DNA from: Ginglymostoma cirratum
Lineage: Eukaryota
Length of the DNA stretch: 64,000 bases
Direction: 5' to 3'
NCBI GenBank assembly: GCA_024137785.1
Contig: JAHRHZ010000021.1
Location: 41,504,442-41,568,441, forward strand
Positions 2,640 through 51,973 of the stretch are shown here, in pieces. Below the pieces are notes generated by a model. The model was given only the letters and a program-made list of their open reading frames with translations. It did no database searches and was not told the DNA's origin. Each line of letters opens with the position of its first letter. The stretch's first letter is position 1. The position numbers and the translations under genes were made by a program.

Positions 2640-2715
2640 CAGTTGCTGGAAAAGCTCAGCAGGTCTAGCAGCATCTGCGAAGAAAAATCAGAGTTAAAGT
2701 TTTGGGTCCGGTGAA
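2640..2715 (-). mobile_element. Family A mini-element fragment
   Basis: ttgctggaaaagctcagcaggtctagcagcatctg...gagttaaagttttgggtccggtga matches the 27778 arm. Confidence 0.7.
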
Positions 2716-3159
2716 GCATCATTAAATTAAATGTATGTCATCATTTAACTTTTGCCCAGCCTCTAACACAGATCTATTGCAACAATGTAATTGGCTTGTC
2801 CCTTTGGACATGTATAATGGCATGGGTGAGCAAGCAGCAATAGAAAAGTCTTCACATCATGTTTGTTAAGATTGAAATATATGTTTTATCAACTTCATTT
2901 TTCTATGCTCACATTTATGAAAAGCCAGCCCAGGCAAACTTGTCATCTTCAAATGACACAATCTATAGCACCTGTTTACAGCCACTTTACTTGAATAAAC
3001 TTGAACTCTCCATTTTCCTTTCTGACAAGTTTTCTATACAAACATCAAGGCGTCACATAAAAACATTAGAATGCAGTTCTTTATAATGGAAGCCGAATTA
3101 TATCCATGCACACCATTTCAATGGCAAAAATGAAATACAGATTTTCTGTACCTACAAAC

Positions 3160-3805
3160 AGACCATGCTAGAAATACTCAGGTATAGCAGTATCTGTGGA
3201 GAGTGAAAAACAGGATTAACATTTCAGGTCCATGACCTTGAAAAAACATTCTGATGAAAAAAGAAAGTTAAGGGTTGGAAGAGTCATTGATTATTTGGGA
3301 ACAGTTTGGACAAAAAAAAGTGTTGAGATAAGAAAGTCAGTTCCATCGGACAGCAACAAGCGAGAACAAGGAATCGCAAGCACAGTCCTATTTGTGGATC
3401 TTGGGGTGGGGAGGGGGAATGTTGGCTATCTGAGGTTGGAGGCTGTTGAGGCAAGATCTATAATAGATTTTGGTGACAGAAAAACAGCTTTACATTCAAT
3501 GATACAGTCATGGCCTGGTGGAAGTGGAGAAGGTGTCAGATAATTAATGTTAAGCCTGGTTATGTAGAGATCAGTACTGCAGACAAAATCACTACCACCT
3601 TGTCAGAAGGTTGATAATAAATGCTTAGGGTTCAGAGAGCTGCAAGTGCAGATGGACATATTTTAAGCTGACTGTGGGAACAAAAAAATACTAGCTAAGA
3701 TCACACTTTTACAGTGACAGATCACAGGCCTGAAATGTTAACTCTCTCCTCAGGTACAGACAGGGTTGCTTAGTTTTTTCACCATTTTCTGGTACAATAT
3801 TTCAG
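3160..3805. mobile_element. Old Penelope-like remnant bounded by inverted family A-like arms
   Basis: Degenerate arms at ~3165-3255 and ~3715-3800. Confidence 0.45.
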
Positions 3806-3994
3806 TTTAATCCTTGAAGCAAAATAACTTGGTCTCTACTCTGCAACACCACAAAAGATTAACTGGTACATTGGAGATGGCACTATGTAAGATTTTCAAT
3901 ACTGTAAAATGATGAATTAGATGAGAAACTATAATTAGCACTCATCTTGCTTTAAAGGGACAGTATACATTATATCTTTCTAGAAATACACTCT

Positions 3995-4100
3995 GCTGTA
4001 CAAACCACACATGAACACAAATTTCTGTTAATTCTGCTTTAATTTAAAATATGTATGTGGAAACAAAATAGAGAGGTAAATAGAATTACATTTATACAAA
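3995..4100 (-). terminator. Probable polyadenylation site of PNPLA3-like mRNA (ATTAAA 4043-4038), 3' UTR about 1.3 kb
   Basis: Two upstream TGTA motifs (~4085-4097), ATTAAA, then GU-rich TTGTGTTCATGTGTGGTTTGT about 20 nt downstream. Confidence 0.5.
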
Positions 4101-5314
4101 AACTTGTAATGTTCAAAAACAGAGATTTGGAATAACGAGGTATGTGTATCAATTAGTTCCGAGAAATAAAAAGGCACTTTGTGACTTTCTCATATCTTCT
4201 TCAAAAAGATCACAGTGAAATTAGCACCAGACAAAAGTTGTCTTTAAAGAGATTTTAAAAAAAGAGAGAGAGAGAAAGAAAATATCACCATTTACTCAAA
4301 GAATTCCAGGCTTTCAGTCACCTTAAATGAATGAACAATAAAATACATTGTGGTTTAAGAAAGTTATGCTTTGTACACACAGTTTTCTGAACTGAAGTAG
4401 CAAGTTCACTCATTGGAAGTTTCATCTTCTGTTACTGGCAGCAGATAGTTGCAGGTATTTAATACTCTATTTATAAGCAAATTTAGAGACCCACTCAGTT
4501 GTTACAACAAGCCTTTCAGCACAAGAATAAACAGCAATACAAACAGTTTTAAAAGGTTAATGTTTCTGGTATTGCAAAAACCATTGCATCAATAGATATT
4601 CAGAAGTGTACATTGTTGTGTAAGATTTTAGTCATCTGAATTCAACATCATTCAAGTACACAAGTCCTAAAGGCAACATACTCAACAGGGATTAATTACA
4701 GCAACGAATTTGAAACACTATCGTTTAGTCAACAAATGCAATCTGTTGTTTCTTCAGTAATGCATGTTTCGGAGTGCACAGTAGGAATAGTACATATACA
4801 AAGGAGAGGTAAATTAATGCACGTGGGTTGGATTAAACTGAATACCCAGTAGTTTAAAATCCAGTGATTGTGCTGTATATGCAAATAAAATAACTTATAA
4901 TCTACTAAATTTATCAGATTGTAAATGATAAATACCATTCTCAGTTGATGAACCATAAACGGTTCAGAATTAATCACCAGTACTGTGGAAGCCATTTGTA
5001 TCTGGTTAACAATAAAGTGCAAACATTAAAAGTCATGCCCTATGTAATTCATAACATGTTGAAGTCTCCTGAAAAACAATTTGATTGTGCAACAACAATT
5101 CTATATGATAGAAGTTTAAGTGGATTTAAGATTATTAATTTGATACAAGATACATTGGTTCCTCTAAGTACAGGAATGACAACTGCAACACATACACACA
5201 CACAACACGCACCTCCAGTTGGCCAAGGGCCAACATTGGCACAATATTCTAATCTCAGAGCTATGCTGAAAAAGATGTCCTGGTCGACTGTCTTTCCAAA
5301 TCTCCTAACACCAT

Positions 5315-5540
5315 TCAGGATTCGGAGCTAGTGAAGAAATGGATTTGCTGGTCTGAAGTCACGAGACCCTGCTTTCCGAAAGCATCAGATTCATACACTG
5401 TTGAGTTCCCCAGCTCCTTCAATCCAAAGTGCTGGGAGTTAAGCTCCGCAGATGAGATTTGTGAAGTGAAGTAAGGTTGGTACAGGTTTGAGATAGGTGG
5501 TAGGCTGAGGCATTTTCTCAGACGTATATTACGTAGAACT
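5315..5540 (-). CDS. PNPLA3: PNPLA3-like last coding exon (VLRNIRLRKCLSLPP...FFTSSES*)
   Basis: ttttccAG acceptor, phase matches exon 8, TGA at 5315-5317. Confidence 0.85.
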
Positions 5541-5862
5541 CTGGAAAATAAGGCAAACATTACCAGAAACTCAGTTCATGGATCAAAACAAGGTTCTTTT
5601 AAAATCAGGCGTAGTTGAGCTTCATTTGAAAAAAAAGGATCAATCAATTCATAACAGCCTTGATGTATTAAAAAAGAAACTTCAAGATCAGTGTTGGATA
5701 AAAACGTGTGCTAACATTCTCGTGGAAATACATTCTAGACAGCCAACAGAACAGCCATCTCCTAAAGTTGCATCTTTGGGATTTTCCAGAATTCTTATTT
5801 GAAACTCGAAACTCATGACTTGAAGAAAATTTTATTAGTGCAACGGTTCCAGATTCGTGTGG

Positions 5863-5973
5863 TAGATATTTTCTAAACAAACTGTTCAGAGATATTATTA
5901 AATACCTCTGGAGCAGGTGGGACTTGAACCCTCCTGGTCTAGAGGTGGGGACATCACCACTGTACAAGAGCCC
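5863..5973 (-). mobile_element. Short (~110 bp) tRNA-derived SINE
   Basis: B-box ggttcaagtcc, tail atctctgaacag...aaaatatcta shared with the 37678 and 63839 copies. Confidence 0.7.
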
Positions 5974-6912
5974 GTCAGATTGGCAAGGTATCTACCGGTG
6001 GAAATGGAGTCAACCTATCAATCAGTGTTCAATTTGCTCGTGATAACTAATTCATTTCCAAATCACAGATACATCCTTTGGGATATTTGGTTAGTTAGCA
6101 TACCCCATTTCCAACACCACCACCACCTCTTTTAGTCTTCATTACATCACCTTGCATGGAGTCACCACAATGCTAATTGATTATACCAATGAGTATGCAG
6201 AAGGGTGTGATCAAAATCAACATTTTTGGATTTGGTGGGCGATTTTACTTTCCTGTTACTAACACCTCCCCACTTATCTGGGCTAAGGATTCGTATTGAT
6301 AAACATTGTCTTGCCTGCACCAGCAGTTAGATTCTTTCATTATCATCAATTCCTGGATTAGCACAGTAACTGGGAATGTTCTGGATCAAAAGGTACAGTG
6401 GTACTGCCTGAGCCACAGACTGATCTTCATACATACCTTCTTAATCCTGAAAGATGCATACTTAGGATTCAAAGGATCAAAGGGTATGGGGACAACATGA
6501 ATTTATGTGGATGATCAGCCATGATAACATAACTGAATGGCACAGCTGGCTTGGAGGGCTGGATGGCCCACTCTTGCTCCTGTTTTCATACTGGTTTGCT
6601 GCCTCATATTGGACTAACAAGAATGGTAGCCTGACAGAGGCCTGTAAAACCTAAAGAAGGAGATCCAAGATTATGGGCAACTTGGTCACGACATTAACTT
6701 ATATTAAGAAAAAGTCACCCTTTGCTTTAAACTAGCTCAAATAAGTTTCTTTGTTCCCAAACATGTTCAAAATTTTCAATTCTTAGTCAATTATATTGCA
6801 TATTGTTCAGAGAGAAAAAAACTGTTTGGAATTGACCCATATGGATGTTATCCTATGCTTGGAAGCTAGAACATCCAAACAAATTTTTCAGACACAGAAA
6901 GGAGCTACATAC

Positions 6913-7035
6913 CTAGAACGTGGACGCAACCAAAACTGCTTTGCTGCTCTGTGATAAATCACACCACTGATAAGGTTTAGTTGTTCACGCATCCAACAGA
7001 CATCTTCAGGGACATCAGGAAGCCACTCCACTAAC
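6913..7035 (-). CDS. PNPLA3: PNPLA3-like coding exon 8 (RLVEWLPDVPEDVCWMREQ...LRPRSR)
   Basis: cAG acceptor, AG|GTATGT donor, 123 nt, conserved WLPDVPED motif. Confidence 0.94.
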
Positions 7036-8399
7036 CTGTTTTCCAAAAACACATTTGTCACACGGAAGCTGCGGCAGCCAAGTTATTGCAGTTGAGATGT
7101 TCCTTTATTGACTGAAATCAAAACAGCATTTGCCCAAAACCAAACAGGTTAAAAGAAAACAGGGAATTTCTCTGTTTCAAGCCCTTGCTGGTTGAAGTTA
7201 CATTCATTCTTGGAAGATTGTGCAACAGAAGTCTGACTCTTAGCCAGATGCAACTGAGTTCCTTGCTAGCTGATATTGTAGACAAACTGCCAGTCTTTTG
7301 AAAAAAAAAAAGTACAAGAAATACTGGAATGATCAGGTCACAGCTATGGGGAGAGAGAAACTCCAGGCCAGTGACTTAATGGTTCTGATGAAAGGTTATC
7401 TATTCAGACAGAGTATTTTCAGCATATTTTTTCTTTTAGATTGCCGGGATTTTCTGTATTTTGTTTTCTTTTATGTTGTCCAGAACAATAACTACCGTAT
7501 AATTTCAACCAATGGGGAGTCACTGGCACATGGGGCAAATCCACCCCCAGTTGAGTCAGCACCTGAAACAGCACTGGGTATCACTATGCAGGTTTAGCTT
7601 CCTATGACAAGTATCCTTTCTGACACTCTAATTGCAATTCTGTAAAGTAATAAGGAAATCCAAACATACTGTAAATACACACTCACACAGAAAATGGAGT
7701 CCTCCTTTCACACTGGCCACAGCTCCTTAAGAAGTGACAACCCTCGAATGCCTTGTGAAAATGGCCATTTTCCTTGAGAATTGAACTATATATCTAAGTA
7801 ATTTACTTAGTAGCAGTGGCAATTACACATTTGCACTTTCCATTGGCTTCACTGGGGTGGGAACTGTGGTATATTCTTGTCCATTTAGCCAAGGACCATA
7901 ACTCAGATCCTTCTGTCCTCAACTGGAATCAGTTAGTTGATCTTTACTAAAGAACAAATACATTTTATCATATATTTGCATGTCCTTAAAAATTTAAAAT
8001 AAAAGGTACTTTTACACAGGAAGGGAACCATTAAGCAAAAAGGTGACTACATCATTAAACCTATTTTTAAAAAAAAAGTTATGAGAATGACAACAATTCC
8101 CTAAGCACTGGTAAGGCACAAGAGGTTAATGATTTCCTAGTTCATGAGATCATTCTAAGATGCTTCTAAGAAATGTTTTACACTTTCCTCAAAAAGGGGG
8201 ATTTTCTAAAGGGGTCTGTCCAAAACGGTTGCTAATTTCCTTTAATACTTATCTCAATTCTATGAAAAAGATGTTTGTTTCCAAGTCTGAATGCATCACC
8301 TGATCTTTGTTTTTTAGTAAAAGAGGGAACAGGAGAGGGAATAAAAAGCACACCTTATTCCTAATGCTTCAAATAAATTAAATATACACAGTTTTAGTC

Positions 8400-8800
8400 T
8401 CTTTATTTCAGGAGGAATGTACTTGCACTTCAGAAACTTCAAGGAAGGTTCACTAGGTGGATTATTGCACATGAAGGGGTTGTTTTACAAGCAGGATGGG
8501 CCTGCAGCCGCTGGGAGCTTAGAAGAATGTGAGGTGATCTGATTGAAACAAAAAAATTTGAGGGGGATTGACAGGATGGATTCTGAGAAGGTTTTTGCCT
8601 CAATGAGTCATGAATATATTCAAGGCCAAGATACAGATTTTTGGACTATAAAAGGGAAAAAGCAAACAGTTACAGGCAAAATTGCAAGAAAGTGAAGTGA
8701 AGCCAAGATCCAAGCAGCCATGATCTTACTGAATGGCAGAACATATTAAAGGGGCTGCACAGCCTACTCCTTATGTTGATTCTTTTGTTCTTCTGTTGAA
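8400..8800 (+). mobile_element. CR1 3' fragment
   Basis: agaagaatgtgaggtgatctgattgaaac...cagccatgatcttactgaatggcag. Confidence 0.7.
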
Positions 8801-8892
8801 GGTTCATACAGTGGTCAAACAACTTGGTAAAATAACCATATTTACAAAAGACACTGTGAAGCCAGCTAAATTCGGCTGCTCAGAACACATAC

Positions 8893-9025
8893 CTGCAACC
8901 AAAAGAATAGGCAGACTCCAATGGCAGTGTGTAAGGCAACATTGCATAAGACGCCATTCTAACCAAGAAGAGGTTGCTAAGCTGTGCATAAAGACCACTT
9001 GTCTCCTTACAAGCTTCATGCAACG
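8893..9025 (-). CDS. PNPLA3: PNPLA3-like coding exon 7 (ALHEACKETSG...MLPYTLPLESAYSFGCR)
   Basis: tAG acceptor, AG|GTATGT donor, 133 nt, hydrophobic LPYTLPLES segment. Confidence 0.94.
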
Positions 9026-10339: not shown

Positions 10340-10560
10340 GAGCTAGAACCAGAAGTTGAAGTTTTTTTTTGCCTTGCACTCAGCACTACGATGCAAGAAA
10401 CAGACTTGGGGTAAAAAAGAAAACAGAGACACCATTTTATACAGAATGCAAAGAGCGTGCTGATTGGTTGGGCCATTATTTGCTGGAGATGCAGCAAGAA
10501 AAGTTAGCCATCAACTCAATTCTCATACCAGACAATGCAGATTCTGATTGGTCAAGTTGT
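10340..10560 (-). repeat. Interspersed repeat with CCAAT+TATA cassette (inverted copy of 11250-11480)
   Basis: Reverse complement cccaaccaatcagcac..cattctgtataaaa..ccccaagtctgtttcttgc matches 11337-11410. Confidence 0.65.
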
Positions 10561-11249
10561 TGCCAAGGGATGCCACAGAGTTTGGCTGTCTCCATCATTT
10601 TTTTGTTGAAAAGTTGTAATGTATGAACAAATTCCTTATGCTGACATAAAATTTAAACCTTTATGTACAACATGCAAAAGCACATTGTGGGCCCAGCTGA
10701 CGATCATAAGTTAGTTGCCAGTATTAGTCTGGATTTTCTTTTAAAATAAAATAATTTTCAACAGCCAAATCATTTGTAATGATAAATATATTTAGAAACT
10801 AATCCACAGATGGTTTTTTCCACTGAAAGGCCTTTGTCATCAGGCCAAAAAGACATTTTCGCTACAAGTGTGAGGAATGTGATACGGGTTTCAGTGCAAG
10901 TGTAAAGCCTGGAATGCTAGCTGTACATCCCAATGACTGGCAGACCGTAATCAAACAACACGTCCTGTTTACCATTTGCAGCTAACAGCATCCTCACTGC
11001 GTTCAACTAGCTCACCTGTGCAAGCCTCAGAAGTATATCCACCATTAGATGTGATTCTGCCATTAGAAATCACTTGTTAAAATAAATCAGAACTGTTCTA
11101 AGAGTTGCACCAGGAATGTGTGATGTATTTGCTCATGCTAGGAGCCACATAAAACCTCAGTATCTGGTTTCGTGTTAGAAAAAGCAATTTGTGCATACAT
11201 TTTACTTTTTCAAAATGAAAAGGATGATGGAGACAGCTAAACTATTTGT

Positions 11250-11480
11250 AATCCTTGATCAATCCAAGTCTGCCTGCCTGGTCTAACGGTTAAGATTGAC
11301 AGTTAACTGTTCTCACTGCATCTCTGTCACTTATAACCCAACCAATCAGCACTCTCTCTCATTCTGTATAAAACAAAGTATTTTCTTTTTCCCCAAATCT
11401 GCTTCTTGCCTCCTTGTTTTGAAGAAGTGTGTGGGGGTAAAACGTGGTAACTTTTAGGCTTTTCTTAAGCAATTTTTAAG
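11250..11480 (+). repeat. Interspersed repeat with CCAAT+TATA cassette
   Basis: ccaat 11342-11346, tataaaa 11367-11373; homologous to 10340-10560. Confidence 0.65.
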
Positions 11481-15479: not shown

Positions 15480-16630
15480 AATTGATTATCAATTGTACTC
15501 AAGGTATCAGAGGAGATTAAGTTCTTGGGATTATAGCAGGAAGGTCAATGTAAGGATACTGTCAAACAGACAAACAAAACAATCTATTGATCGTCAAGTC
15601 TGCCCAACCTTATGGATTAGTTTATTTTAAAAAGAATTTCAAGTTATAAACAGAAATCACAGCAAGTCAATGATTTGTGTGAGGTCACAACTCGCGGAAC
15701 ACAGCAGATTAATTGGCAGGCACTGTCACAATATTGTATACAAATGGCACATGGAGTCCTCAAATGAGCATTCTCTTAAGGAAACAGCACAAAAAGTAAA
15801 ATGTTGTGTTGATTGTTATAAAACTGAGGAACAATGCAGGAAGGCACATGAACTCAATGGTCGTCTGAAGTACAGCATTTGATACTACTGAGACCATGTC
15901 AGAAGTACTGCATGCAGATTTGGTCTTATTTTGAAAAGGATAAGAAGTTATTGCAAGTATTAATAAATACTATGAAGAGAATTAGGATTATCTGAATGTG
16001 AAAATTGTGCAGAGTTACAGTACAATTCATCCTACGTGTGCTGTTCCACTTCCACTGACCTCACAAACCTTCCTTTGTAGTGTAGAGTTGATGTCATGTT
16101 GTGACTGTACGGGATATTGCTGAGCCCACTTTTAGAATACTGCATACAATTATGGTCACCCTTCTGTAGGAAAGATGTTAAACTTAAGGGTGCAGAAAAG
16201 ATTTACAACGGTGTTGCCAGGGTTGGAGGGTTTGAGCTATGGGAAGACGCTGAATAGGCTGAGGCATATTTCCCCTTGAGCATTGGAGGCTGATGGATGG
16301 CCTTATGGGTTTAAGGTCATGAAGGGACATGGCTGGGGAGAATAGCCAAACTATTTTTTCTACGTGAGGGAGTCTAAAACCAAACGGCCTAGCTTTAAGG
16401 CGAGAGAGGAAAGATTTAAAAAGGACTGAGGGAGTAACTTTTTCACACAGACAGTTTGTGTCCATGGAGTGAGATGCCAGATGAAGTGGTGGATACAATT
16501 AAAAACCTTTAAAAGGCATCTGGATGGGTACATGAATATGAGGGGTTTAAAGTGATATGGGCCAAATGCTGGTAAATGGGAGGTGGTCAGATTGGGATGT
16601 ATGGTCAGTGCATATTACTGACTCTAATAC
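15480..16630 (+). mobile_element. Two adjacent CR1 fragments (old 15480-16000, younger 16075-16630)
   Basis: gggtgcagaaaagatttacaacggtgttgccagg..gatttaaaaaggactgaggg.. Confidence 0.7.
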
Positions 16631-17949: not shown

Positions 17950-18088
17950 AAAACAAAAGCAGAAATTGCTGCAGAAACTCAATAAGTCCGCCAGCAACTG
18001 TGAAGAGAAAGCAGAATTAATATTGAGTCCAGTGATCAGGAGAAAGGTCACTGGGTTCAAAATGTTAACTCTGCTTTCTCACCACAGA
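17950..18088. mobile_element. Degenerate fold-back family A mini-element
   Basis: gcagaaattgctgcagaaactc...ggtcactgggttcaaaatgttaactctgctttctc. Confidence 0.65.
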
Positions 18089-20138: not shown

Positions 20139-20802
20139 CTTGAAAAAGTTACACAAAGAACAAAGTTAAACAAAGTATTGCAGGTCATCAATGCATGAAG
20201 AAAAGATTATACATTCAGAATAATGTCGCTTACAAAGGGAGCCATTCAGCCCATTAGGGCTTCTAAAAGAGCTGCCAAGGACCTACCAAAATAACTTCCC
20301 ATTCTTTCCATAAAATGTTATAAATTTGCCCTTCCCATTTAAAAATTCTCTTTCTGAAATTATTAGAGAAAAATGCTTTAATCATCATTTCAGGCAATGC
20401 ATTCCAGATCATAACCTACCGTGTATTAAAAAAATAAACGTCTTAATGCCCCTCTGGTCTCCACATCCATCACACTAAGTGCATATTTTTGATTACCGAT
20501 CACTGACCCTACTGCTAGCATTCGTAACTCGAAAAAACCTTTTGTAAATCTTTTACGACGATTCTCTATTCCAATGAGAAAAACTCTTGCTTCTCTAATT
20601 TCTTCACATATTTCACTGTGCTACCATCCAAGAAGACTATGTAGAAGAAATTTAGAAGGCCTTAACATTAGTTCCTAAAGTGTAATTGCCAAATTTGAAA
20701 AGAATAATTCAGTTGTGGACTTATTGTATATAACTAAATTATACCTCAAGCCCAGGATCGCTTTTAAAGTAAGAGTTTCAACTTTCTGATGATCCGAGCT
20801 GA

Positions 20803-23087: not shown

Positions 23088-23256
23088 AAACAAAACAGAA
23101 ATTGCTGGAAAATCTCAGCTGGTCTGGTAGCATCTGTTGAGAGAAATCAGAGTTAATTTCCAGGCACAGTGACTCTTACTCAGAACGAGATTTTCCAGCA
23201 ATTTCTGTTCTGGTTTCTGATTTCCAGCATCGGCAGTTCTTTTAGGTATTTTATTT
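23088..23256. mobile_element. Family A Penelope-derived mini-element with partial inverted arm
   Basis: Similar to the 27778 element; TSD agtgac(c/t)ggaagaa at 23074-23087 and 23257-23270. Confidence 0.75.
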
Positions 23257-23949
23257 AGTGACTGGAAGAAGTTGCATTTAGTATTTCACTAAACATCAGA
23301 CTGTTTTGATTAATATTTTTAATTTGTCCTCTAAACAGAGGCCTCACCACAACCACAACACCCCCCCACTTCAAAACCGATCTGGGGATTTCACTCAGGA
23401 CTCTTGTTCACCGGAGGTTAATCACCTAATAAATACTGCCTTGTCTTAAATGGAACTATATTAAATGAACTTGGTACAGTTGCAGTCAAACATACCAAAG
23501 TGACATTAAGCACCAAGCAAATGCATATTAAAACAATGAGGGTGCTGATATTATTGCATTCCTCATGAAATCAAGAACAATTTAAGTTAATCATTTCAAT
23601 TGACAATATTTGAGTGTTCTCAGAAAGAAGATGGGAGAAAAGGGTACGTACAAAATGTAAATTTGTAATGAGCTCAATTCCTTTACTCAGTACGTTTACC
23701 AATTAATTTGACATAGTTTTCTAAACCACAAATTTTCTGTTCAAGATTTTTATGTCAGATAACTCAAGGACATCTGTACATTGTGGCAACATATACAGTC
23801 TAACAAGCCCAACAGCAGAAACAACCATTCTGCATATGGTTTGGGGAAATAAAACAGGTGGAAGAACCATCACTGGGATAGTATGTTGGTGGGAGCAACC
23901 ATAATCCTATTTGCATCATGGAAAAAAAGATAGCCCAAGAGTTCAAAAA

Positions 23950-25100
23950 TGGAAATAGAAAATACTGGAAATGCACATCAAGTCTGGCAGCAACTGTTAA
24001 AACAGAAAAGTAAATGTTTCAACTCAAGGACCATTGTTCAGAATCGGGTGAAGACAAAATGTAACAGGTTTTGAACAAATGCAAGAGAGGAAGGAAGGAG
24101 GAAAAAACAAATGGGATAGTCTGTGATAAAATACAGGGTGGCAAATAGTATCTTCTAAAAAAAAGCGGTCCACGGTACAAAAGACAAAATAAGTGCTAAT
24201 AGCTGTAGTAGTAGAATGGAAGTCTCCAGAATGGGTCTGAATGGCAACTATGTCCAAAAGCAAAACATGAAAAATACAATTGAGACTGGCACATTGCAGA
24301 AACAAAGTTCACAAGCCTGAACCTGTTATCCTTGACTGTTGAGTCCACAAGGCTGGAAAGCGCCTCAAAACATGAAGTGCTATTCCTCTAGTTGCTGTCA
24401 AAACTTCACTGAAGATCAAGGATGGAAACATGCACATGATAACAAGGCAGATGATGAAAATACTCAACCTTGGGGTAATGCTTGTGGACTGAGCAGAGGT
24501 GTCCCAAAGGCTGTAGCCCAATCCATGTTTGGTCTTGCTGAGGTAGGACAATGTATTTGCTGCTCACAATGCATTCTAAATTGAAGTAAATAATTGTGTA
24601 TGTGAATAACGTATGTAGAGACAGACATGTTAAAGAAAGAATGTGACAGCATTGGTGACATGGAAACAAAGATTGCTGATAATAAGCCGAGAGAGAGAAA
24701 TAAATGATGGTAAGGTGCTAACATGAAGTGCACGTTTGAAAATGAGGGCCTAGGGGTGGGGGGGAAAGACTAATGAAAATAAAAGAAGGGATTGATGTTC
24801 TAAAATTGCTGAACATAAATGTGGAGTCCTGAGAGCTGTAAGTTACCACGGTGAAAGATGAGGTACTGTTCTTCAAGCTTGCAATGAACTTCCCTGCAGC
24901 ACTGTAACTTGCCCGAAACAGAAATGTTGGCATGGAGCATGCTGATGTATTGAAGTGGCAAGCAACTAGAAATGTGGGGTTATTTTTACAGACAGAATGT
25001 ATATATTTGGCAAACTGGTCACCTAGACTGTTTCATCTCCCCAGTGTAGAGGAGACCACATTGTGAACAACAAATAAAGTCAACAAGATTGAACGAAGCT
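23950..25100 (-). mobile_element. Decayed Penelope-like elements: two tandem GIY-YIG endonuclease C-terminal remnants plus 3' terminus
   Basis: Reverse translation gives CSQCGLLYTGE (~25036-25068) and KLEEQYLIFHRGNLQLSGL..FSNFR (~24800-24880); second copy ~24320-24590. Confidence 0.7.
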
Positions 25101-25255
25101 ATTGTCATTGACCTGTACTTAACATTCTTCATTTTCAAATCCCCTTAGGAGTGGATTTTCTTAAAACTTAAAAATTTAAGGTATAATCATGCACATTTGA
25201 ATACTGCTTGTAAATCAGTCAAGTGGCTTGGTTCACCTTCAAGATCTATCAGTAA

Positions 25256-25449
25256 TGAGATTGTTGAGGTTGGTTGGCTCGCCAACTTTCGCAGACGTTT
25301 CGTTACCATGCTCTGATGAGGCTTCATCTGAGGCTACACTCAAGATGATACCAAGCATGGTAAAGAAACGTCGGCAAAACAAGAAACCAGCTTGGCGAGC
25401 CAACCAACCTCAACACACAACCCGAGCTACAAATCTACTCCAAAACCTT
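25256..25449. mobile_element. Fold-back Penelope-derived mini-element (family C)
   Basis: Perfect 24-bp inverted repeat 25262-25285/25392-25415, inner 18/19 IR, TSD agatc(t/g)atcagtaa. Confidence 0.75.
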
Positions 25450-25522
25450 AGATCGATCAGTAAAGATTTGTAACAATTGTTAAAACGGTCTCTTTCCTAA
25501 AAAGTATATCTGCGGCGGATAA

Positions 25523-25769
25523 GTCACAGTGTGGAGCTGGAGGAACACAGCAGGCAGCATCAGAGGAGCAGGAAAGTTGACGTTTCAGGTTGGGACCCTT
25601 CTCTTTCAGGATGGAGGAGATTACCAGTGGGTTGCAGTGGGAGAGAGAGATCCACTGAGGTCTTTCCAGAAGGAGGGGGATAACTTCAAGGTGGGCATCC
25701 TTGGAAGAGGTTTCGCAGTGGGGTTATAACTCACTCATATAATAAGAACTGCAGATGCTGGAGTCAGAG
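25523..25769 (-). mobile_element. Penelope-derived mini-element (family B), circularly permuted
   Basis: Homologous to 33358-33850; degenerate 14-bp TSD at 25509-25522 / 25770-25783. Confidence 0.7.
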
Positions 25770-26953: not shown

Positions 26954-27140
26954 CCAGCGGTACTCCACAAACCACAGCGGCGGCGGTGAGCGCCCCGGCC
27001 GATGCTCCATAGATCCTGCTGGCGTCCCGGGTCAGGTAAGGAGCGTGTTCTTGAATACTGCTCGCCGCCCCGATATGGTAAACACCCAGAAACCCGCAGC
27101 CAGCGAAAGAGATGTTCCAGCCGCCTTCCAAATCAAACAT
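26954..27140 (-). CDS. PNPLA3: PNPLA3/PNPLA2-like coding exon 1 ([24 protein letters not shown]...[10 protein letters not shown])
   Basis: ATG at 27140, oxyanion GCGFLG and nucleophile GASAG motifs, donor G|GTGAGT, 187 nt. Confidence 0.96.
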
Positions 27141-27777: not shown

Positions 27778-28009
27778 AAATAAAAACCGAAAGAACTGCG
27801 GATGCTGTAAATCAGGAACAAAAACAAAGTTGCTGGAAAAGCCCAGCAGATCTGGCAGCATCTGTGAAGGAGAGTTAACGTTTTGGATCCGATGACCCAT
27901 CCTCAGAACTGTTCTGAGGAAGGGTCACCGGACTCAAAACGTTAACTCTGATTCTTTCCTTCACAGATGCTGCCAGACCTGCTGAGCTTTTCCAGCAGCT
28001 CTGTTTTTG
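27778..28009. mobile_element. Fold-back Penelope-derived mini-element (family A) with hammerhead-like core on each arm
   Basis: Arms ~27822-27909 and 27911-28008 are inverted copies; TSD ctcccatttccaact / ctcccaatccaact. Confidence 0.8.
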
Positions 28010-28021
28010 CTCCCAATCCAA

Positions 28022-28964: not shown

Positions 28965-29365
28965 AGGTCAGAAGTCACATGACACCAGGTTATAGTCCAA
29001 CAGGTTTATTTGAAATCACAAGCTTTCAAAGTGCTGCTCCTTCATCAGGTGAAGTGAAGAGAGGCAAACAGACATACAATTTACAGGCAGAGAGATCAAA
29101 AGATCATACAAATGGTGCGAGTGGAGTGTGGACAGGCTGAAAAACAAGTCTCTGCAGGTGATCAAATATGTCAGACGGTGTGAGTAAAGTGTCGACAGCT
29201 GAACAGCAAGTGGAGGAATGACCTATGATCCAAATAATTGAGGCAGAGAGATAATTACAAAAAATTAAAAATAAAGTGGTGCTGGAAACAACCAAACGAG
29301 TAGAATAACATAATAGGTATGAGAGTCACATGTCAAGGGATAATGTTTATAAACATGACTTTCAG
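28965..29365 (-). mobile_element. Penelope-like element 3' UTR/terminus (hammerhead + AATAAA)
   Basis: Terminus CTGATGAAGGAG...GAAAGCTTGTGATTTCAAATAAACCTGTTGGACTATAACCTGGTGT. Confidence 0.7.
29016..29052 (-). ncRNA. Minimal type I hammerhead ribozyme motif in a Penelope-like element 3' end
   Basis: UCAC-CUGAUGA-A-GGAG(CAGCA)CUUU-GAAAG-CUU/GUGA: complete core, stem I UCAC:GUGA, palindromic stem III AAGCUU. Confidence 0.7.
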
Positions 29366-29429: not shown

Positions 29430-31040
29430 ATCATTTGAAAAGAGCCCACATTACCGAAGAGGAGATGCTCGAGGTCTTAAAATGCATAAAAGTAAATAAA
29501 TCCCTAGGACCTGATCAAGTGTATCCCAGAATATTGCGGCAAGCTAGGGAAGAAATTGCACAGCCCCTGGCAGTGATGTTTGTATCATCCACAACCTCAG
29601 GTGAAGTGGTGAAAGACTGGAAAATGACTAATGGGCCTTTATTTAAGAAAAGCTGCATGAAAAACCAAGGAACTATAGATCAGTGAGCCAGATATCAATG
29701 ATGGGTAAGTTGTTGGAGGTGATTCTGAGATACAGGATCTACGTGCATTCGGAGAGGCAAGGACTGATTAGAAATAGTTAGAATGGCTTTGTGCATGGGA
29801 AATCATGTCTCATAAACTTAAATGAGTTTTTTGAAGATGTGACCAAGAGGAAAGATGCAGGCAGAGCGGTAACGGTTGTCTATATGGACTTTAACAAGGC
29901 ATTTGACAAGGTTTCGCATTGGTTAGTAAGGTTAGATCACATGGGATCCAGGGAGAGCTAGTTAATTGGATACAAAATTGGCTTGAGGGTAGGTGACAGA
30001 GGGTTGTTGTTTGGACTGGAGGCCTGTAACCAGTGGTGTTCCACAAGGATTGGTGCTGGGTCCACTGTCATTCATCATTTATATAAATGATTTGATAAGA
30101 ATATAGGAGGCATAAGTTTGCAGATGATATCAGAATTGGTGATATAGTGGACAGTGAAGAAGGTTTTCTCAGAGCACTACAAAGGATCTTAATTAGCAGG
30201 GCCAATGGGCTAAGGAGTGGCAGATGGTGTTTAATTTAGATAAACGGAACGTATTGCATTTTACTAAGACAAATCAGGGCAGGACTAACACAGTTAATGG
30301 TAGGGCCCTGGGGAGTGTTGTGGAACAGAGAGACCGAAGGGTTCAGTTACGCAGTTCCTTGAAAGTGCCATCGCAGTTAGACAAGGTTCGTGAAGAAGCC
30401 TTTTAGCACGGTTGCCTTAATTTCTCAGAGCATTCAGTATTGGAGTTGGGACATCATGTTGCGGCTTTCCAGGACATTGGTGAGGTTGCATACAGTTCTG
30501 GTTGTACTGATGTAGGAAGAATGGTATTAAACTGGAAAGGGTGCAGAAAGGATTTCCAAAGATGTTATCAGGACTGGAGGCTTTGAATTACAAGGAGAGG
30601 CTGAATAGGCTGGGACTGTTTTCCCTGGAGTGTAGAAGATTGAGGGTTGACCTTTATTGAGATTTATAAAATCATGACAGGCATAGATAAGTTGAATAGC
30701 TAAGCTCTTTTCTCTAGAGTAGGACAGTCCAAAACTAGAGGGCTTAGGTTTAAAGTGAGAAGGGAAAGGCTTAAAAGGGACCTGAAGGGCAACTTTTTCA
30801 CACAGAAGGTGTGTATGGAATGTGCTGCTAGAGGAAGTGGTAGAGGTGGTACAATTATAACTTTTAAAAGACAGTTGGACTGGTACATGAATAGGAAGGG
30901 TTGAGAGAATATGGGCCAAACATACAAGTTTGTATTACTTGTCCCATGCAAATGGGACAAGTTCATTTTTGAAAACTTGGTCAGCATGGACAAGTTGAAC
31001 CAAAGTGTTTCTGTGCTGTATGGTTCTATGATTCTATTGT
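29430..31040 (+). mobile_element. CR1-clade (HER1-like) LINE ORF2 reverse transcriptase remnant with 3' tail
   Basis: [39 protein letters not shown] motifs with stops/frameshifts; ttctatgattctat tail. Confidence 0.9.
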
Positions 31041-32744: not shown

Positions 32745-33350
32745 ATCACAGAATCATATACAATCACAGAAGAGGCCCTTCAGCCCATCATGTCTGTACC
32801 ACCGAAGCGACACTAAATTGACACGAGTCCCACCTTCCCACACTGAAACCATAGCCTTGAATGTTATGATATTTCAATTGTTCATCCAAGTACTTTTTAA
32901 AGTTTGTAAGGTTTCCTGCCTCAAACACCCTCACAGGCAGTACATTCCAGAATCCCACCACCCTCTGGGAGAAAATGTTTTTCCTCAACTTCCCTCTAAA
33001 CCTCCTGCCTATCATCTTAAAATTATGCCCCCTTGTCATTGACCCCTTGACTAAGGGGAACAGCTGATTCCTATTTACCCTATCCACACACTTCACAATC
33101 TTGTACACTTCAATCGGGTCCTCCTTCAACCCTCTCTGGTCCAAAGAAAACAACACAAGCTTATCCAGCCTCTCTTCATAACTGGAATGCTCCTTCCCAA
33201 GCAGTATCCAGTGCAATCACATCTTTCCTATAATGAGTTGACCAGAACTGCACTCAGTATTCCAGCTGTACCCTAACCAAAGTCCTATACATCTTCAACC
33301 TAAGGTCCCTGCACTTATAATCTATGCTTCAACTGATAAAGGCAAGAATT
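32745..33350 (-). mobile_element. CR1 3' remnant
   Basis: SYEERLDKLVLFSL..TRGHNFK..FSQRVVGFWNVLP. Confidence 0.85.
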
Positions 33351-33357: not shown

Positions 33358-33850
33358 AGAGATAGTAAGAACTGCCGATGCTGGAGTCAGAGATAACACA
33401 GTCTCGAGCTGGAGGAACACAGCAAGCCAGGCAACATCAGGGGAACAGGAAAGCTGACATTTTGGGTTGGGACCCTTCTTCAGAAATGTGGGAGGGGAAA
33501 GGTGCTCTGAAATAAATAGAGAGAGGAGGGGTGGGGCTGGGGAAGGTAGGTGGGATGGTGAAAGGTGAGTGCAGGTAGGCAGTGGTGGGGATTGGTCAAT
33601 GAGGTGGTAGGAGCAGATAGGTGGGAGAGAAGACGGACAGATCAAGGAAGTGGGGATGAGTACCTGGTTTGCTTCAACATGTGGCCAAGCAGCTCAAGGG
33701 CCGCAGAGATTACCAGAGGGTTGCAGTGGGAGATAGATCCACGGAGGTCTATCTGCAGTTCTTACGACCTCTGAGTGAGGTATAAACTCACTGCAAAGCC
33801 TCTTCCAAAGATGACCACCTTGAAGAAGTTGTCCTCCTCCCTCCAGAAAT
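33358..33850 (-). mobile_element. Penelope-derived element (family B) with inverted 5' segment
   Basis: gagctggaggaacacagc...gacccttcttcagaaa terminus; 33751-33850 inverted relative to the 25660-25760 copy. Confidence 0.7.
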
Positions 33851-34529: not shown

Positions 34530-34900
34530 CATGGAGTCATAGAGTTGTACAGTACAGAAACAGACCCTTCAGTTCAACTCATCCGTGCTGACCAGATAAC
34601 CTAATTAATCTAGTCCCATTTGCGACCATTTGGTCCTAAACCCTTCCTATTCATGTATCCATTTAGATGCCTTGTAAATGTTGTAATTGTGCTAATCTCC
34701 ACCACTTCCTCTAGCAGCTCGTTCCATACACACACTACCCTCTGTGAAAAAGTTGCCCCTCAGGTCCCTTTTAAATCTTTACCCTCTCACATTAAACCTA
34801 TGCCTTCTAGTTTTGGACTCCCCTACCCTGGGAAAAAGACCTTGACCATTCACCTATCTATGCCCCTCATGATTTTATGAACCCACTGTAGGTTAGAGGA
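34530..34900 (-). mobile_element. CR1/HER1 3' remnant
   Basis: ctctgtgaaaaagttgcccctcaggtcccttttaaatc, homologous to 30700-31030. Confidence 0.8.
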
Positions 34901-37269: not shown

Positions 37270-37448
37270 CAAAAGCAGAAAGCAGGTCCGACAGTTTTTT
37301 TCTGGAAAGCGGAACAGAGTTAATAATTAGAGTCCAATGTGACTATCCGTCAAAACTAAACATTCCAAAAAATGCATTTTGGACTTGAAACTTTAATTCT
37401 GTTTCTCTCTCCACAGATGCTGCCAGGCCAGCTGAATTTCTTCAGCAC
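37270..37448. mobile_element. Degenerate fold-back family A mini-element
   Basis: acagagttaa...ggacttgaaactttaattctgtttctctctccacagatgctgcc. Confidence 0.55.
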
Positions 37449-37560
37449 TGTAGTGATTGGAACAAGGTGGGTCTTATTGACTATGAGATCCTTGATTGGG
37501 GCTGTTAATCTGGGCCAAGCAAGGACCCCTGGCTGGCAAATATATACAGCGGATTAACAT
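37449..37560 (+). mobile_element. Short LTR-like fragment (5' half); probable 3' half of a related LTR at 28680-28805
   Basis: TGTAGTG start, CCAAT-like and TATA-like motifs. Confidence 0.35.
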
Positions 37561-37793: not shown

Positions 37794-37821
37794 TGGGTTA
37801 TGTTTAAAAAAAATCATAAAC

Positions 37822-37920
37822 AGGGATAACAAGGTGTAGAACTGGATGAACATGGCAGGCCAAGCAGCATCAGAGGAGCAGGAAAGCTGACATTTCGGGC
37901 CTAGACCCATCTTCAGAAAA
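37822..37920 (-). mobile_element. Family B terminus with hammerhead-like core
   Basis: Reverse complement CTGAAGA-T-GGGTCTAGGCCC-GAAAT-GTC. Confidence 0.7.
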
Positions 37921-41069: not shown

Positions 41070-41165
41070 AACAAAAATTACTGGAAAAAGTTCAGCACGT
41101 CTGGCGGCGCCTGTGGAGAGAAGTCAGAGTGAACACTTCGGATCCGGTGACCCTTCCTCGGAATG
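41070..41165 (-). mobile_element. Family A mini-element just upstream of SULT4A1 promoter
   Basis: ctggaaaaagttcagcacgtctggcggcgcctgtggagag...cggatccggtgacccttcctcggaa. Confidence 0.7.
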
Positions 41166-41329: not shown

Positions 41330-41800
41330 TTCGTGATTTGAACGGAAAGATGCTGCGAGCAGGTTTTGAGTGAGTGGGGTTTTATTGTCGGCGGACTGGG
41401 AGCGGGTGTCTGCGCCTTTAAAGCTGCCGGGGAGGAGGCTGGAGCCGCTGCGGAGTCCGGGCTGTTAGCAGCGGAACAGGAGCTAAAAGGAGAGCGGGCT
41501 GTGTGCTGAGGCCGTGCCCCCCGCCCCCGGGAGGATGGCAGAGAGTGAGGCAGAAACCCCCAGTACCCCGGGAGAGTTCGACAGCAAATACTTCGAGTAC
41601 AATGGAGTGCGGCTGCCTCCCTTCTGCAGGGGGAAGATGGAGGAGATCGCCAACTTCCCGGTCAGGGAGAGTGACATCTGGATCGTCACCTACCCCAAAT
41701 CCGGTAGGAACCCTCTATCAACACCACCACCCACAGCCCGCTCCGGTACCTGCAAACCCCGGGGGGTTGGGGGTACAGGGTACCCGGAGCCAGCAGCTGG
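41330..41800 (+). promoter_or_regulatory. CpG island / promoter and 5' UTR of SULT4A1
   Basis: Local GC and CpG enrichment against AT-rich background; TTTAAA TATA-like at 41417-41422; GC box CCCCGCCCC near 41519-41527. Confidence 0.7.
41535..41703 (+). CDS. SULT4A1: Sulfotransferase 4A1 exon 1 (MAESEAETPSTPGEFDSKYFEYNGVRLPPFCRGKMEEIANFPVRESDIWIVTYPKSG)
   Basis: Kozak-type AGGATGG, 5'PSB motif TYPKSG(T), donor G|GTAGGA, 169 nt. Confidence 0.97.
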
Positions 41801-42647: not shown

Positions 42648-42790
42648 CAAAACAGAAATTGCTGGAGAAACTCAACAGATCTGGCAGCATCTGTGGTAAG
42701 AAAACAGAGTTAACCTTTCGAGTCCATTGACTTTTCATCAGACCAACATTTATTATTTCAGGTTTTCAGCATGCATAATTCTTTGTTTTA
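42648..42790 (-). mobile_element. Family A mini-element with CUGAUGA...GAAA core (42716-42741)
   Basis: Reverse complement CTGATGA-AAAGTC-AATG-GACTC-GAAAGGTTAAC. Confidence 0.7.
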
Positions 42791-42799: not shown

Positions 42800-43930
42800 A
42801 CGTGGTTAGAATAATAGGTGTGTTTCCCAATTGACAGGGTATGATTCATGGTGTCTCAGAAATCTGCACTGGGCCTGAGGTTTTCAATATATTTATCAAT
42901 GAATTAATCAGTGGATTAACAAAGAAATAGTCTTTGTCCAAATTTGCTGGTGCCACTGCTAGTTAGTAAAATTAATGGTGTAGATTGCAACAGAAAGTTG
43001 AAGGGGGGCATTAACAGATTAAGTGACAGTGCAAAACTGGCAGATGGAATTCAGAAACGAAAATGAAGTTGATGGAAAAGCTCAGCAGGTTTGGCAGCAT
43101 CTGTGAGGAGAAATCAGAGTTAACGTTTCGGGTCCGGTGACCTCTTCTTTCGGTTTTTAGATGGAATTCAGTGTTGGGAACTGAGAGGTCATTCCCATTT
43201 GGCCTGAAGAATGATATAGCGGCTTTTTTAAAAATGATATACTAGAAACTGTGAACAAGCCAAGAGAAATCAAACTCCTGTATGGATGTCACTGACATCA
43301 ACTGAACAGGTGGAGAAAGAAAAATTAATAGGAAGATGAGTAAACATTAACCCTTGTTTTGAGGGGACAGGAAATGCAAAGTTAAGACACAATTATATTA
43401 AAAACCCTGGTTACATTCTACCTGGAGTATTGAATGGGAGGACTGCATTCAGTACAGGACACTCCACGTCAGGAAGGGACACAGAACAGATTCAACAGAA
43501 TGATACAGGTTTCTTATTTAAAAGAAAATTAAATATGAGGACAGGTTTCATAATTTAGGCTTGTATACCCTTTGATATTGAAGATTAAGAGATGATCTAA
43601 TTGGCGAGTTTAAGATGGTTCAAAGATTTGACAGGTGGATTGGTGTATGTTATTTCCCCTGCTGGGGGAGACCACAATAAGGGGGCATAACGTTAAAACT
43701 CAAGGTAGGTTGATCAGGAGTGATGTCAAGACGATGCAAGGATAGTGTAGATCTGGAACTCTCCTCCCCCCAAAATGCTGATGAGGCTTGGTTGATTGAA
43801 AATGTCGAAAGTAAGATTGATGGAATTTTGCTGTTTAGATTTATAGAGAGCAAAGGTGAGTAGGTTGAGTTAAGGTACAGAGCTAATGAATGGCACAATG
43901 TGTTTGAGCCTATTGCTGTTCTTCCAATCC
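42800..43930 (+). mobile_element. CR1 RT remnant
   Basis: tatatttatcaatga..aaatttgctggtg..tggcagatggaatt; interrupted at 43055. Confidence 0.7.
43055..43158. mobile_element. Family A mini-element inserted in a CR1 fragment
   Basis: Perfect 13-bp TSD agatggaattcag (43042-43054, 43159-43171). Confidence 0.8.
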
Positions 43931-48645: not shown

Positions 48646-48950
48646 GGCATGGTGGCACAGTGGTCAGCACTGCCTCACAGTGCCAGGGACCTGGGCTCAA
48701 TTCCACCCTTGGGCGACTCTCTGTGTGGAGTTTGCACATTCTGCATGAGTTTCCTCCGGGTGCTCCGGTTTTCTCCCACAGTCCAAAGATGTGCAGGCTA
48801 GGTGGATTGGCCATGCTAAATTGCCCGTAGTGTTCAGGGATGTGTAAATTAGGTGGGTTCTAGGGGGATGGGTCTGGGTGGGATGCTCTGATGGTCGGTG
48901 TGGACTTGTTGGGCCAAAAGGCCTTTTTCCACACTGTAGGGGTTCTGTGA
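48646..48950 (+). mobile_element. HE1-type SINE, near full length
   Basis: Same head, core and tail as the 1147 copy. Confidence 0.85.
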
Positions 48951-49281
48951 AAGTATAGAGCTCCAATAGGGAGGGTTGTTTGTGTTGCAAGCATAAAACT
49001 AGACTTGAGCAATCAAGGCTCATTTTATGAACCAATAACAATAGAGTTTTGTAAAAGTTCGATTACAAGCTTGAGAAGTAATTTTGAATATTTCTGTAGA
49101 AAATTAAATAGGTAGAAGAGAGTAAATGATGGATAATTTGTATGAGGAGTGGGCTTGAATGGCTATTGTATTATCCCATGGTCATATTTTTCAAAGGAGA
49201 TTAACCTTCCATCAATAAAATGCTGCACGTTAATCCTTTATCATTCTGAATAGAAAATACAAGGGCGGCTTGAAAAATAAC

Positions 49282-49412
49282 ACATTTCGGAAGAAGGTCC
49301 CCGACCTGAAATGTCAGCTTTCCTGTTCCTCTGATGCTGCCTGGCCTGCTGTGTTCCTTCAGCTCCATACTTTGTTATCTTTGACTCCGGCATCTGCAGT
49401 CCTTGCTATCTC
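49282..49412 (+). mobile_element. Family B terminus
   Basis: cggaagaaggtccccgacctgaaatgtcagctttcctg...gactccggcatctgcagtcc. Confidence 0.7.
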
Positions 49413-51259
49413 ACTTTTATCGGATATCCTTAAAGGGTTGACATTTCTGTGTGCACTATTTTCATTAATTGGGTGACAACATAAATAGGTTCATGACCAT
49501 GTGGAAAAAGTGCATGTAAATGTTGTACAAAAGCTTTAACCAGTTGGTTAAAAACAGTAAGCGGAAGGATTTCACTCTCCTCCGCTCCCCAACCCATTGC
49601 CTACTCTGCAAATGGCTTTAAAAGATTGGAATATTTCACAAAATAGATGATGGTACAAAAAAGATTATATTTGACATCAGGTAAATCACAGTCCCTGAGA
49701 AAATTCTAATTTGATTGCATTTATCTTCAAACGTGCAGGATAGAATCCTCTGTTCTTGTTGATGATGGGCTTGGAGACAGAGATGTGGTGGACCTGAATC
49801 CGTCCGCCTATTCCCTCTACCGGTGTGAAGTCCAGGTTGGAAAAGCCCAGGATCAACCTTGCCACCCTGCTGCCGGTGGAGGCCCTTAACTATTGCTGTG
49901 TGGTGTGAATGACAGCTAGAACCATGTGATCGGTTAGCTCTGGTAGGGAAGGATGTAGTGAGGCCCCTTGATCAAAGGCACTCAGAGCCTCATCGAGGGG
50001 CTGGATATCAACTAAGGGGTAGGGACAGTGGTGATGCTGAAGTCAAAAGCCTTTTCTGCTGACCTTCCTGCAACCCCCATCCTGTGGAATCCACCTACAT
50101 CGTATTACTCACCTGTGGCCTGCATTGCTCCACACTTTTGGCACTTGATTCGTATCTTGCCAGTAGCATCCATGGCCTCCCCAGTGGTGCTGCTGAGCAT
50201 GACCCTCTGGTAGGCCGCCACTTCTCATTATGTGAATTGTCTGTCCTCGTGATCTTGATTCCAGGGAAGCCCCGTGAATGGCCACAACGTTGGCTGATTG
50301 GCTTGTGGTTTGGAAGTCCTTCTGGAAAGAGGCGAGAGCCATGAAGCTTTAACAACATCCATGACCAAAATGTTACTTTTGGCTTTAACAACACTTAACA
50401 TGACTTAGTTAAGCTCATAACGGAAAGACAGTGTAAAATGCTAGATTTATATCTGTGATATCTCACTTGTTGCAAATAGAGATTTTGGTGTTATGCTGTT
50501 TTAAGAACAATTGAGATAGTCAGTTGAGAGTTAAAATAACTATTTTAAAACGATTAGAATTATGATCACTGGTCCTAAAATGCACCCCTCCCCCACTAAC
50601 ATTTCAGTCTCTTGTCCTGCCTTATTTCCGAAGAGCAAGTTTTGCTCCTCCTTCATCTAGAACTGGTAGTCTTCTCCCGTGGTCCCCAGCATCAAAGATA
50701 CCAACCTTCTCTCCACATGATATCAAAATACAGCTGAAGGCATTGGATCCAGCAAAGGTCGTATTCCACATTCCAGCTACAGTACCGAAGACTTGTGTTC
50801 CAGAAATGGCATTGCCCTGAGCTAAGCTGTTCCATTACAGTTAAGATACTGACATCTATATGAACAAGTGAATTCAAAAAAGCTTTTTACTGTTTAAACC
50901 TGTTTAGAGTGTGACTATTTATTATAAAGGTCACAAATGTATTTGGATGGAATTGTAATATTCCTAATCACTGGAAAAGAAGTGCAGAAGTAGTTAAATT
51001 AGATTGGCCCAATTCCTTGCTGTTATCTCACTAATTTTCTATTCAATTTTATGGCAAAGGCTGGGACTGCTGTTGGATTTCAAAACCAAAACTCTTACGT
51101 GAAAATTGAACATGCAGTTTGAGTATTCCAGAGTACAGTTTGTATCCTCAGTCCAGCTATATGTGCATATGTATCCATTTACTCAGATGGTTTTGTTGAG
51201 CAGACTAATCCAGGAGTGTAAGAGCAATGCAAATGAGGCTGTAGGGGTAGGTTGGTCTC

Positions 51260-51877
51260 ACAGAGTCATATAGCACAGAAACAGGCTCTTTGGTAAAACT
51301 CGTCCATTCTGACCAGTTTTCCCAAACTTAACTTGTCTCATTTGCCTGTGTTTGGCCCGTATCCCTCTAAACCTTTCCTAGTCATGTACATGTCCAAATA
51401 TCTTTTAAATGTTGTAACTGTACCTGCATCTACCACTTCCCCCAGTAGGTCATGTATACACCACCATCTGTGTGAAAAAGTTGCCGCTCAGGTCCCTTTC
51501 AAATCTTTGCATTCACACCTTAAACCCATACCCTCTAGTTTTGAACTCCCCTACTCTAGGGAAAAGGCCTTTGCTACTCACCTTATCGAGGCCTCTCATG
51601 ATTTTATAAACCTCCTATAAGGTCACCCTTCAACCTCCTACGCCCCAGGGAGAAAGGTCCTAGCCAATCTAGCCTCTTCTTATAACTTGACTCTCCAGTC
51701 CTGGTAACATCCTCGTAAATCTTTTCTGCACCCTTCCCAATTTAATAACATCTTTCCTATAGCAGGGCGACCAGAGCTGTATGCAGTACTCCAAAAGTAG
51801 CCTCACCAATTGCCCTGTACAGTTGCAATATGACGTCCCAACTCCAGTACTCGGTTCGTGTCCAATGAAGGCAGACC
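51260..51877 (-). mobile_element. CR1/HER1 3' remnant
   Basis: LLEYCIQLWSPCYRKDVIKLGRVQKRFTRMLPGL. Confidence 0.85.
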
Positions 51878-51973
51878 CTTTCTGAAGAAGGGTCCAGACC
51901 CGAAATGTCAGCTTTTCCACTCCTCTGATGCTGCCTGGCCTGCTGCATTCCTCCAGCTCCACACCTTGTTATC
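51878..51973 (+). mobile_element. Family B terminus with hammerhead-like core
   Basis: CTGAAGA-A-GGGT(CCAG)ACCC-GAAAT-GTC at 51882-51909. Confidence 0.7.

Follow-up and report, generated by a model that had tools for sequence, protein, structure and literature searches.

Minimal hammerhead ribozymes are carried by the pseudo-long terminal repeats (pLTRs) of metazoan Penelope-like elements, for which the motif, its link to truncated elements and its occurrence in opposite-strand pairs have been reported (Cervera and De la Pena 2014, PMC4209133). Here we describe repeats of this kind in a 64,000-nucleotide stretch of the genome of the shark Ginglymostoma cirratum (assembly GCA_024137785.1, contig JAHRHZ010000021.1, positions 41,504,442 to 41,568,441 of the forward strand), which is referred to as the window. 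The repeats belong to four families, A to D, and are probably the hammerhead-bearing pLTR ends of endonuclease-containing (EN+) Penelope-like elements, which are likely to have been copied and inserted by the elements' own reverse transcriptase (RT) and GIY-YIG endonuclease and to have been inert thereafter, the short units likely being run-off products. Both the motif and the link to truncated Penelope-like elements are already known, and the four families are added members of that class.

The shark families share with the elements described by Craig et al. 2021 (PMC8557442) an RT followed by a C-terminal GIY-YIG domain, with a cysteine-rich linker ahead of the nuclease in families A, B and D and not in C, as well as the 5′ truncation, inverted copy at the 5′ side and tail of 30–40 bp that characterize EN+ Penelope-like elements. 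The element PAc, a Poseidon of the green anole, starts reverse transcription in vitro internally, at two adjacent sites and on unprocessed RNA, which is its main template, and ribozyme cleavage is dispensable for insertion (Frangieh et al. 2024, PMC11167929). Two adjacent RT starts leading to two 3′ ends are common to PAc and the shark repeats, whereas the shark evidence is a genomic footprint and comes from families with Neptune-type motifs, and the accessible part of that report does not mention a 5′ end of PAc that is fixed at an initiator. The pLTRs of Adineta vaga (Arkhipova et al. 2013, PMC3846280) likewise have a TATA box with an initiator-like TCACT motif, occur as solo pLTRs and form head-to-head palindromes, and their 8–10 bp duplications are a further likeness. 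That report favours an antisense template for the head-to-head joints while leaving the question open; unlike this preference, the 5′ ends of the shark copies at a sense initiator appear to point to a sense template. Retrozymes of the non-LTR kind (LTR, long terminal repeat; Cervera and De la Pena 2020, PMC7229834; Li et al. 2026, bioRxiv 10.64898/2026.07.22.740005), which have been reported in one cartilaginous fish, are similar in their type I hammerhead, non-coding nature and link to pLTRs. However, retrozymes are tandem, with a hammerhead in each unit that is mostly canonical, and have circular RNA, whereas the shark repeats are dispersed, single or inverted, and contain minimal motifs. 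In the literature searched on Penelope hammerheads, pLTR starts and sharks, we found neither these families nor a pile-up of ends at an initiator described; both may be contained in Dfam, Repbase, subscription papers or supplements.

Self-comparison of the window and profiles built from natural genomic copies recovered all four families proposed in a preliminary description of the sequence, with 21 profile matches (A 13, B 5, C 2, D 1) spanning positions 2641–51963. The matches include three head-to-head pairs and thus occupy 18 places, about one per 3.6 kb, in agreement with the one per 4–5 kb estimated previously. The flanks of the window copies are unrelated. All four families have the same skeleton, in which CUGANGA is followed by one extra nucleotide, stem II, GAAA, a loopless palindromic stem III, and UH. 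The features of a minimal type I hammerhead, which are the core, the extra nucleotide after A9, stems I and II, and the palindromic 15.2–16.2 positions, are present in the best-kept copies. The full minimal type I descriptor identified three strict sites in the window (29048 minus, 37916 minus and 51882 plus) and six sites when one core mismatch was allowed, and neither setting gave a hit in 20 dinucleotide-matched random sequences, which supports the previous assignment of the motif. A scan of the window against Rfam at E ≤ 1 detected no hammerhead family. The Rfam match to MIR5048 at 27831–27997 was rejected because it is below its cut-off and reflects a fold-back pair of family A. When 20 window copies were scored, three were intact (two B and one D), ten were decayed, and seven were without the 5′ half of the core. 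Therefore, the statement that over a dozen repeats keep one skeleton was correct in that the repeats are real and the skeleton is found in every family, but it overstated the preservation of individual copies.

The stems listed by family in the preliminary description required correction, although the skeleton holds. Stem II is GUUACC/GGUAAC in the better-kept genomic copies of family C and GGAGC/GCUCC in those of family D, and the forms UACC/GGUA and GGAG/CUUU in the window are decayed. Stem I, which had been missed, is AGUU/AACU in A, UGCA/UGCA in C and UCAC/GUGA in D, and is weak in B. Intact motifs are found in 3 of 76 A copies, 28 of 71 B copies (a count that rests on a lenient two-pair stem I), and none of the eight C and eight D copies in a random sample of the genome. 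Purifying selection on the core was not seen among inserted copies of family A (core 0.89, downstream mean 0.84, median 0.89) or of family B (core 0.96, downstream 0.94, median 0.97). The most eroded column in A, B and D is G12, which is within a CpG. Within families, erosion has affected the core to about the same extent as the sequence that follows; the conservation thus lies between families and not among inserted copies. In co-folding predictions for four natural copies, the hammerhead dimer was not the structure of lowest energy.

Longer copies of each family, fetched from the same genome (4.36 Gb, 289 contigs), connect the repeats to coding elements. The shared sequence reaches upstream by staggered lengths, in family B from about 300 to more than 1,000 nucleotides, and reads into a GIY-YIG frame. 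In 20 longer stretches, an RT, an endonuclease, a 3′ untranslated region (UTR) and the hammerhead follow one another on one strand, and part of the element is often repeated in inverted orientation at the 5′ side. Loci with RT, endonuclease and hammerhead were found for families A (L059, L061–L068), B (L060, L073, L074), C (L069–L072) and D (L075); the RT link of D is the one interrupted locus L075, and loci L076 and L077 contain the endonuclease only. The longest copies of family A share about 2.8 kb, and a partial tandem is present in L004. A 534-residue open stretch of family A has a match to RVT_1 (E 1.5e-6) and another to GIY-YIG (E 2.5e-4), each of which narrowly misses the Pfam cut-off, and the RT of family C passes the cut-off (E 2.6e-12). 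A sequence search of the PDB with the family A frame gave no match. In the translations, a CX2-5CxxC linker precedes GIY-YIG clearly in A and B and in degenerate form in D, and the zinc-finger linker is absent from family C (L032, L035). The presence or absence of this linker separates Neptune from the Penelope/Poseidon clade (PMC8557442). Judged from these motifs and without a reference tree, A, B and D are putatively Neptune-type and C putatively Poseidon-type. In the identity check, no family had long copies lacking the RT/GIY-YIG link, and all four were linked, which shows that the repeats are terminal pieces of four Penelope-like families and not a separate class of retrozymes. The Penelope origin given in the preliminary description, as well as copying by Penelope RT and GIY-YIG, is upheld by the continuity of each family with a coding element in the same genome.

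The ends are abundant outside the window. A random sample of 120 stretches of 10 kb, with 521,355 readable bases, gave 187 matches. The 3′ part is contained in 163 of them (76 in A, 71 in B, eight in C and eight in D), corresponding to about one hammerhead end per 3.2 kb. Extrapolation to the whole genome gives roughly 1.4 million copies if the unreadable part is alike. Exact 17–20-mers matched genome-wide 11,267 times for A, 15,603 for B, 2,858 for C and 692 for D, with no match for the reversed controls, and a family A nuclease query gave 122,216 candidates. These counts make the shark genome far denser than the 4,000–9,000 motifs given for coelacanth and frog in PMC4209133, in the accessible part of which sharks are not named and insert ends are not mapped.

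The short copies are genuine insertion units with defined boundaries, and they have a favoured 5′ start. Some copies are flanked by target duplications of 10–18 bp, and a target-duplication score of at least 10 was reached by 7 of 35 short non-inverted copies and by 4 of 1,158 mismatched pairs. Among motif-selected copies, the 3′ ends of all four families form two clusters about 35 nt apart, matching the tail described in PMC11167929 and PMC8557442. Head-to-head pairs hold 68 of the 187 matches of the random sample. At the inversion joints of family A, short stretches of additional bases that end in (A)CTG are often found (L342, L349, L355, L376, L377), which complement the first bases of the element, as if the end of the cDNA had briefly copied itself. 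Copies of different families often adjoin or nest (window positions 25255–25769; L069, L072, L074, L075, L078).

The positions of 5′ ends are given relative to the first C of CUGANGA (core C3), with negative numbers upstream; to place them, the copies of each family were aligned with a single natural reference, and copies at the edge of a stretch or at an N were left out of the tally. Between −12 and 0 lie the 5′ ends of 31 of 72 A copies and 23 of 67 B copies, and between −50 and −13 those of no A copies and three B copies. A peak at the hammerhead cut site was looked for in A and B and was not found (2 of 72 and 5 of 67 ends, respectively). Since the 5′ ends are located upstream of the cut site, the RNA that was copied had not been cleaved there. 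The short copies pile up 4 nt before the core in A and B and 7 nt before it in D. A TATA-like box, which the short copies are without, occupies a fixed position in the long copies, namely −33 in A (9 of 12), −35/−36 in B (20 of 29) and −37 in D (5 of 10). About 30 nt below the box, the A of an initiator-like motif, read by eye against the usual consensus, is positioned at −4 in A, −4 in B and −7 in D. A prediction for family D that was set before sampling held, as 28 of 30 ends were at −11 to −3, nine of them exactly at −7. Stem I of family D begins at −4, and the ends at −7 therefore track the initiator and not the helix. Contigs of public runs have loose ends at −4/−3 and strand switches at −6 to −1; these are assembled contigs, and matches in runs labelled or guessed as RNA prove neither transcription nor ends. 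An extra G before the start, which a cap would be expected to leave, is present in family A genome-wide at 1,605 of 3,449 non-C bases (46.5%, 25.9% expected) and in family D in 10 of 13 copies (p 2e-4).

From these ends we infer a transcription start, a cap and a run-off step. The TATA box and initiator would set the start of the mRNA upstream of the core, at a distance of 4 nt in A and B and of 7 nt in D. The element protein would bind its own RNA, uncleaved at the hammerhead, and start cDNA synthesis internally, as PAc does in vitro, about 80–135 nt below the hammerhead core. A start in the 3′ repeat would give long, variably truncated copies, whereas a start in the 5′ repeat would run off at the first base of the mRNA and give units of 100–140 bp. 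The end of the cDNA would then either join the target or prime an inverted arm. We consider the chances slightly better than even that, in the three Neptune-type families, the mRNA starts at the first base of stem I or 3 nt before it and a large proportion of the short copies are run-off cDNAs extending to the capped end.

Several observations weigh against run-off at a transcription start. The start-site prediction for family C failed, as 22 of 25 readable ends were long and staggered, and no end peak is present, although 31 of the 38 long copies have a TATA-like box at −48. The cap signal is only partial, as a hand tally of family A found the extra G in 8 of 12 inverted copies and 5 of 17 solo copies, and it was found in one of four short copies of family B. 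Older subfamilies with another upstream sequence may inflate the peak, and a few such cases were seen. Sixty-five of the 120 randomly sampled stretches were unreadable. No full-length pLTR-ORF-pLTR element (ORF, open reading frame), with a 5′ repeat joined to the RT, was present among the loci fetched. Furthermore, Penelope of Drosophila virilis was reported to have a TATA-less internal promoter (PMC2377424).

The main rival to run-off is ordinary truncation at the folded ribozyme, in which all copies would be 5′-truncated 3′ ends and the peak would be caused by RT stalling or strand switching at the folded ribozyme or at the pyrimidine tract that precedes it. Penelope fragments are usually interpreted in this way (PMC4209133, PMC8557442), and such truncation agrees with the many ends inside the ribozyme (21 of 72 A copies at +1 to +26), with some inversion joints at which microhomology of one stem I strand to the other is used (for example L225), and with the missing peak of family C. 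We nevertheless regard it as unlikely, because the peak is narrow and falls outside the structure, and in family D it moves to −7 in step with the spacing of the TATA box and initiator. Moreover, B copies starting at −8 to +2 extend beyond the core by as much as about 780 nt, into sequence presumed to be the start of the element's frame, which would be its 5′ part, and some of them jump back to the same start.

It is very improbable that the short units are non-autonomous RNAs, similar to short interspersed elements (SINEs) or retrozymes, that arise from masters of their own, are processed as hammerhead dimers and are moved in trans. The units do have a preferred start and target duplications, animal retrozymes have been argued to derive from pLTRs (bioRxiv 10.64898/2026.07.22.740005), and some B loci contain two same-strand hammerheads 270–650 nt apart. 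However, no tandem array of complete hammerhead units is present in the window, the units are not bounded by cut sites, and the core erodes like the flanks, with G12 the worst column. The short copies lose the upstream TATA box, and they would therefore not propagate themselves. The lineage tests, which rest on about 100 nt of signal, found no column separating short from long copies after correction (105 columns tested in A, 95 in B); the split of short from long copies in the tree was not rejected in family A (p-AU 0.37, approximately unbiased test) but was rejected in family B (p-AU 0.017). The part of the preliminary description that gave the repeats a retrozyme-like life cycle of their own is thus not supported, in view of their continuity with coding elements, the lack of tandems and the ends away from the cut site. 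Some B composites have a permuted order (L204, L208, L209, L211, L213–L216), in which the sequence returns, after a 5′ stretch of 270–650 nt, to the 3′ UTR or the hammerhead start, in some cases with two same-strand hammerheads; such composites are a possible route to true retrozymes. A splice acceptor as the origin of the family A peak, considered because of a branch-like motif and CAG upstream, was rejected, as the ends include the AG, family B has no AG there, and no upstream exon common to the short copies beyond inverted arms was found among the matches listed.

The family A copies of the window differ in their completeness. The end piece at 2641–2720 (minus) starts inside stem II, at +11 from core C3, and is without the 5′ core, as are the old copy at 3162–3237 (minus) and the copy at 37380–37454 (plus). 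A weak old copy (E 1e-3) is located at 3719–3788 (plus), and an A-like old copy at 23960–24046 (minus) is pyrimidine-rich upstream and may belong to an older subfamily. A decayed head-to-head pair at 17952–18088 is composed of a minus arm (17952–18037) and a plus arm (18036–18088). The arms of the fold-back pair at 27775–28013 (unstranded) start at −5 and −3, and its cores, at 27906 (minus) and 27914 (plus), each have one mismatch, G12 to A. The copy at 23089–23259 (minus) starts at −3 and has an inverted 3′ piece at its 5′ side, at about 23187–23259. Two short copies are positioned at 41070–41165 (minus), which starts at −2 and is decayed, and at 42648–42743 (minus), in which the core is kept and stems I and III are broken. 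The copy at 43043–43171 (minus) consists of a body (43051–43147) and an inverted tail (43145–43159) enclosed by a 12-bp target-site duplication (43043–43054 and 43160–43171).

In family B, an end piece without the 5′ core (25517–25613, minus) is joined, in permuted order, to sequence past the usual 3′ end that is presumed to be the 5′ part of the element (25617–25769, minus). The composite at 33359–33849 (minus) contains the 3′ UTR, a hammerhead at 33483 with one mismatch, a 3′ end with a tail, and pieces of the presumed 5′ region at 33706–33849. The short copies at 37821–37919 (minus, start at −3) and 51877–51973 (plus, start at −6) have the intact motifs at 37916 and 51882, respectively, and a decayed short copy with a tail, starting at −5, is found at 49281–49412 (plus). 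Family C, putatively Poseidon-type, forms a head-to-head pair at 25255–25449 (unstranded) in which the core is decayed, with four mismatches. The putatively Neptune-type family D copy at 28965–29339 (minus) has TATA-like and initiator-like motifs and about 290 nt of 3′ UTR, and its minimal hammerhead, at 29048, is intact.

The window also contains features unrelated to the four families. A patatin-like phospholipase exon (26910–27389, minus; Patatin E 3e-8) is, we assume, PNPLA2/3-like. A frame with a sulfotransferase start motif (41580–41720, plus; Sulfotransfer_1, weak, E 0.15) is presumably SULT4A1-like, and we take SULT4A1 to adjoin PNPLA3 in mammals. A further repeat family (16085–16608, 30436–31037, 32965–33280, 34531–34885 and 51258–51851) presumably resembles the 3′ ends of CR1/HER1-type LINEs (long interspersed elements); a Pfam search of 32791–33216 gave no match. 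SINE copies with a tRNA-like head, which we take to be HE1/V-SINE-like, are located at 1154–1324, 48647–48821 and 59494–59624. A weak match to SNORD111 at 20326–20397 (minus, E 0.017) is below the cut-off. An inverted pair of about 250 bp, with copies about 530 bp apart (10390–10646 and 11173–11412), is outside the four families and may represent the ends of a DNA transposon.

While the class of elements is known, the copy number of hammerhead ends in this genome is notable. If the short units are run-off products, the G. cirratum genome would preserve a record of where first-strand synthesis by Penelope begins and where it ends, on a sense and uncleaved template, and the head-to-head palindromes would result from priming by the end of the run-off cDNA. 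This would bear on two points that are open in print, namely whether the template is sense or antisense, and whether or not the RNA is cut by the ribozyme before it is copied. The fixed 5′ end, provided that it is the transcription start, would also lend in vivo support to the internal-initiation model.

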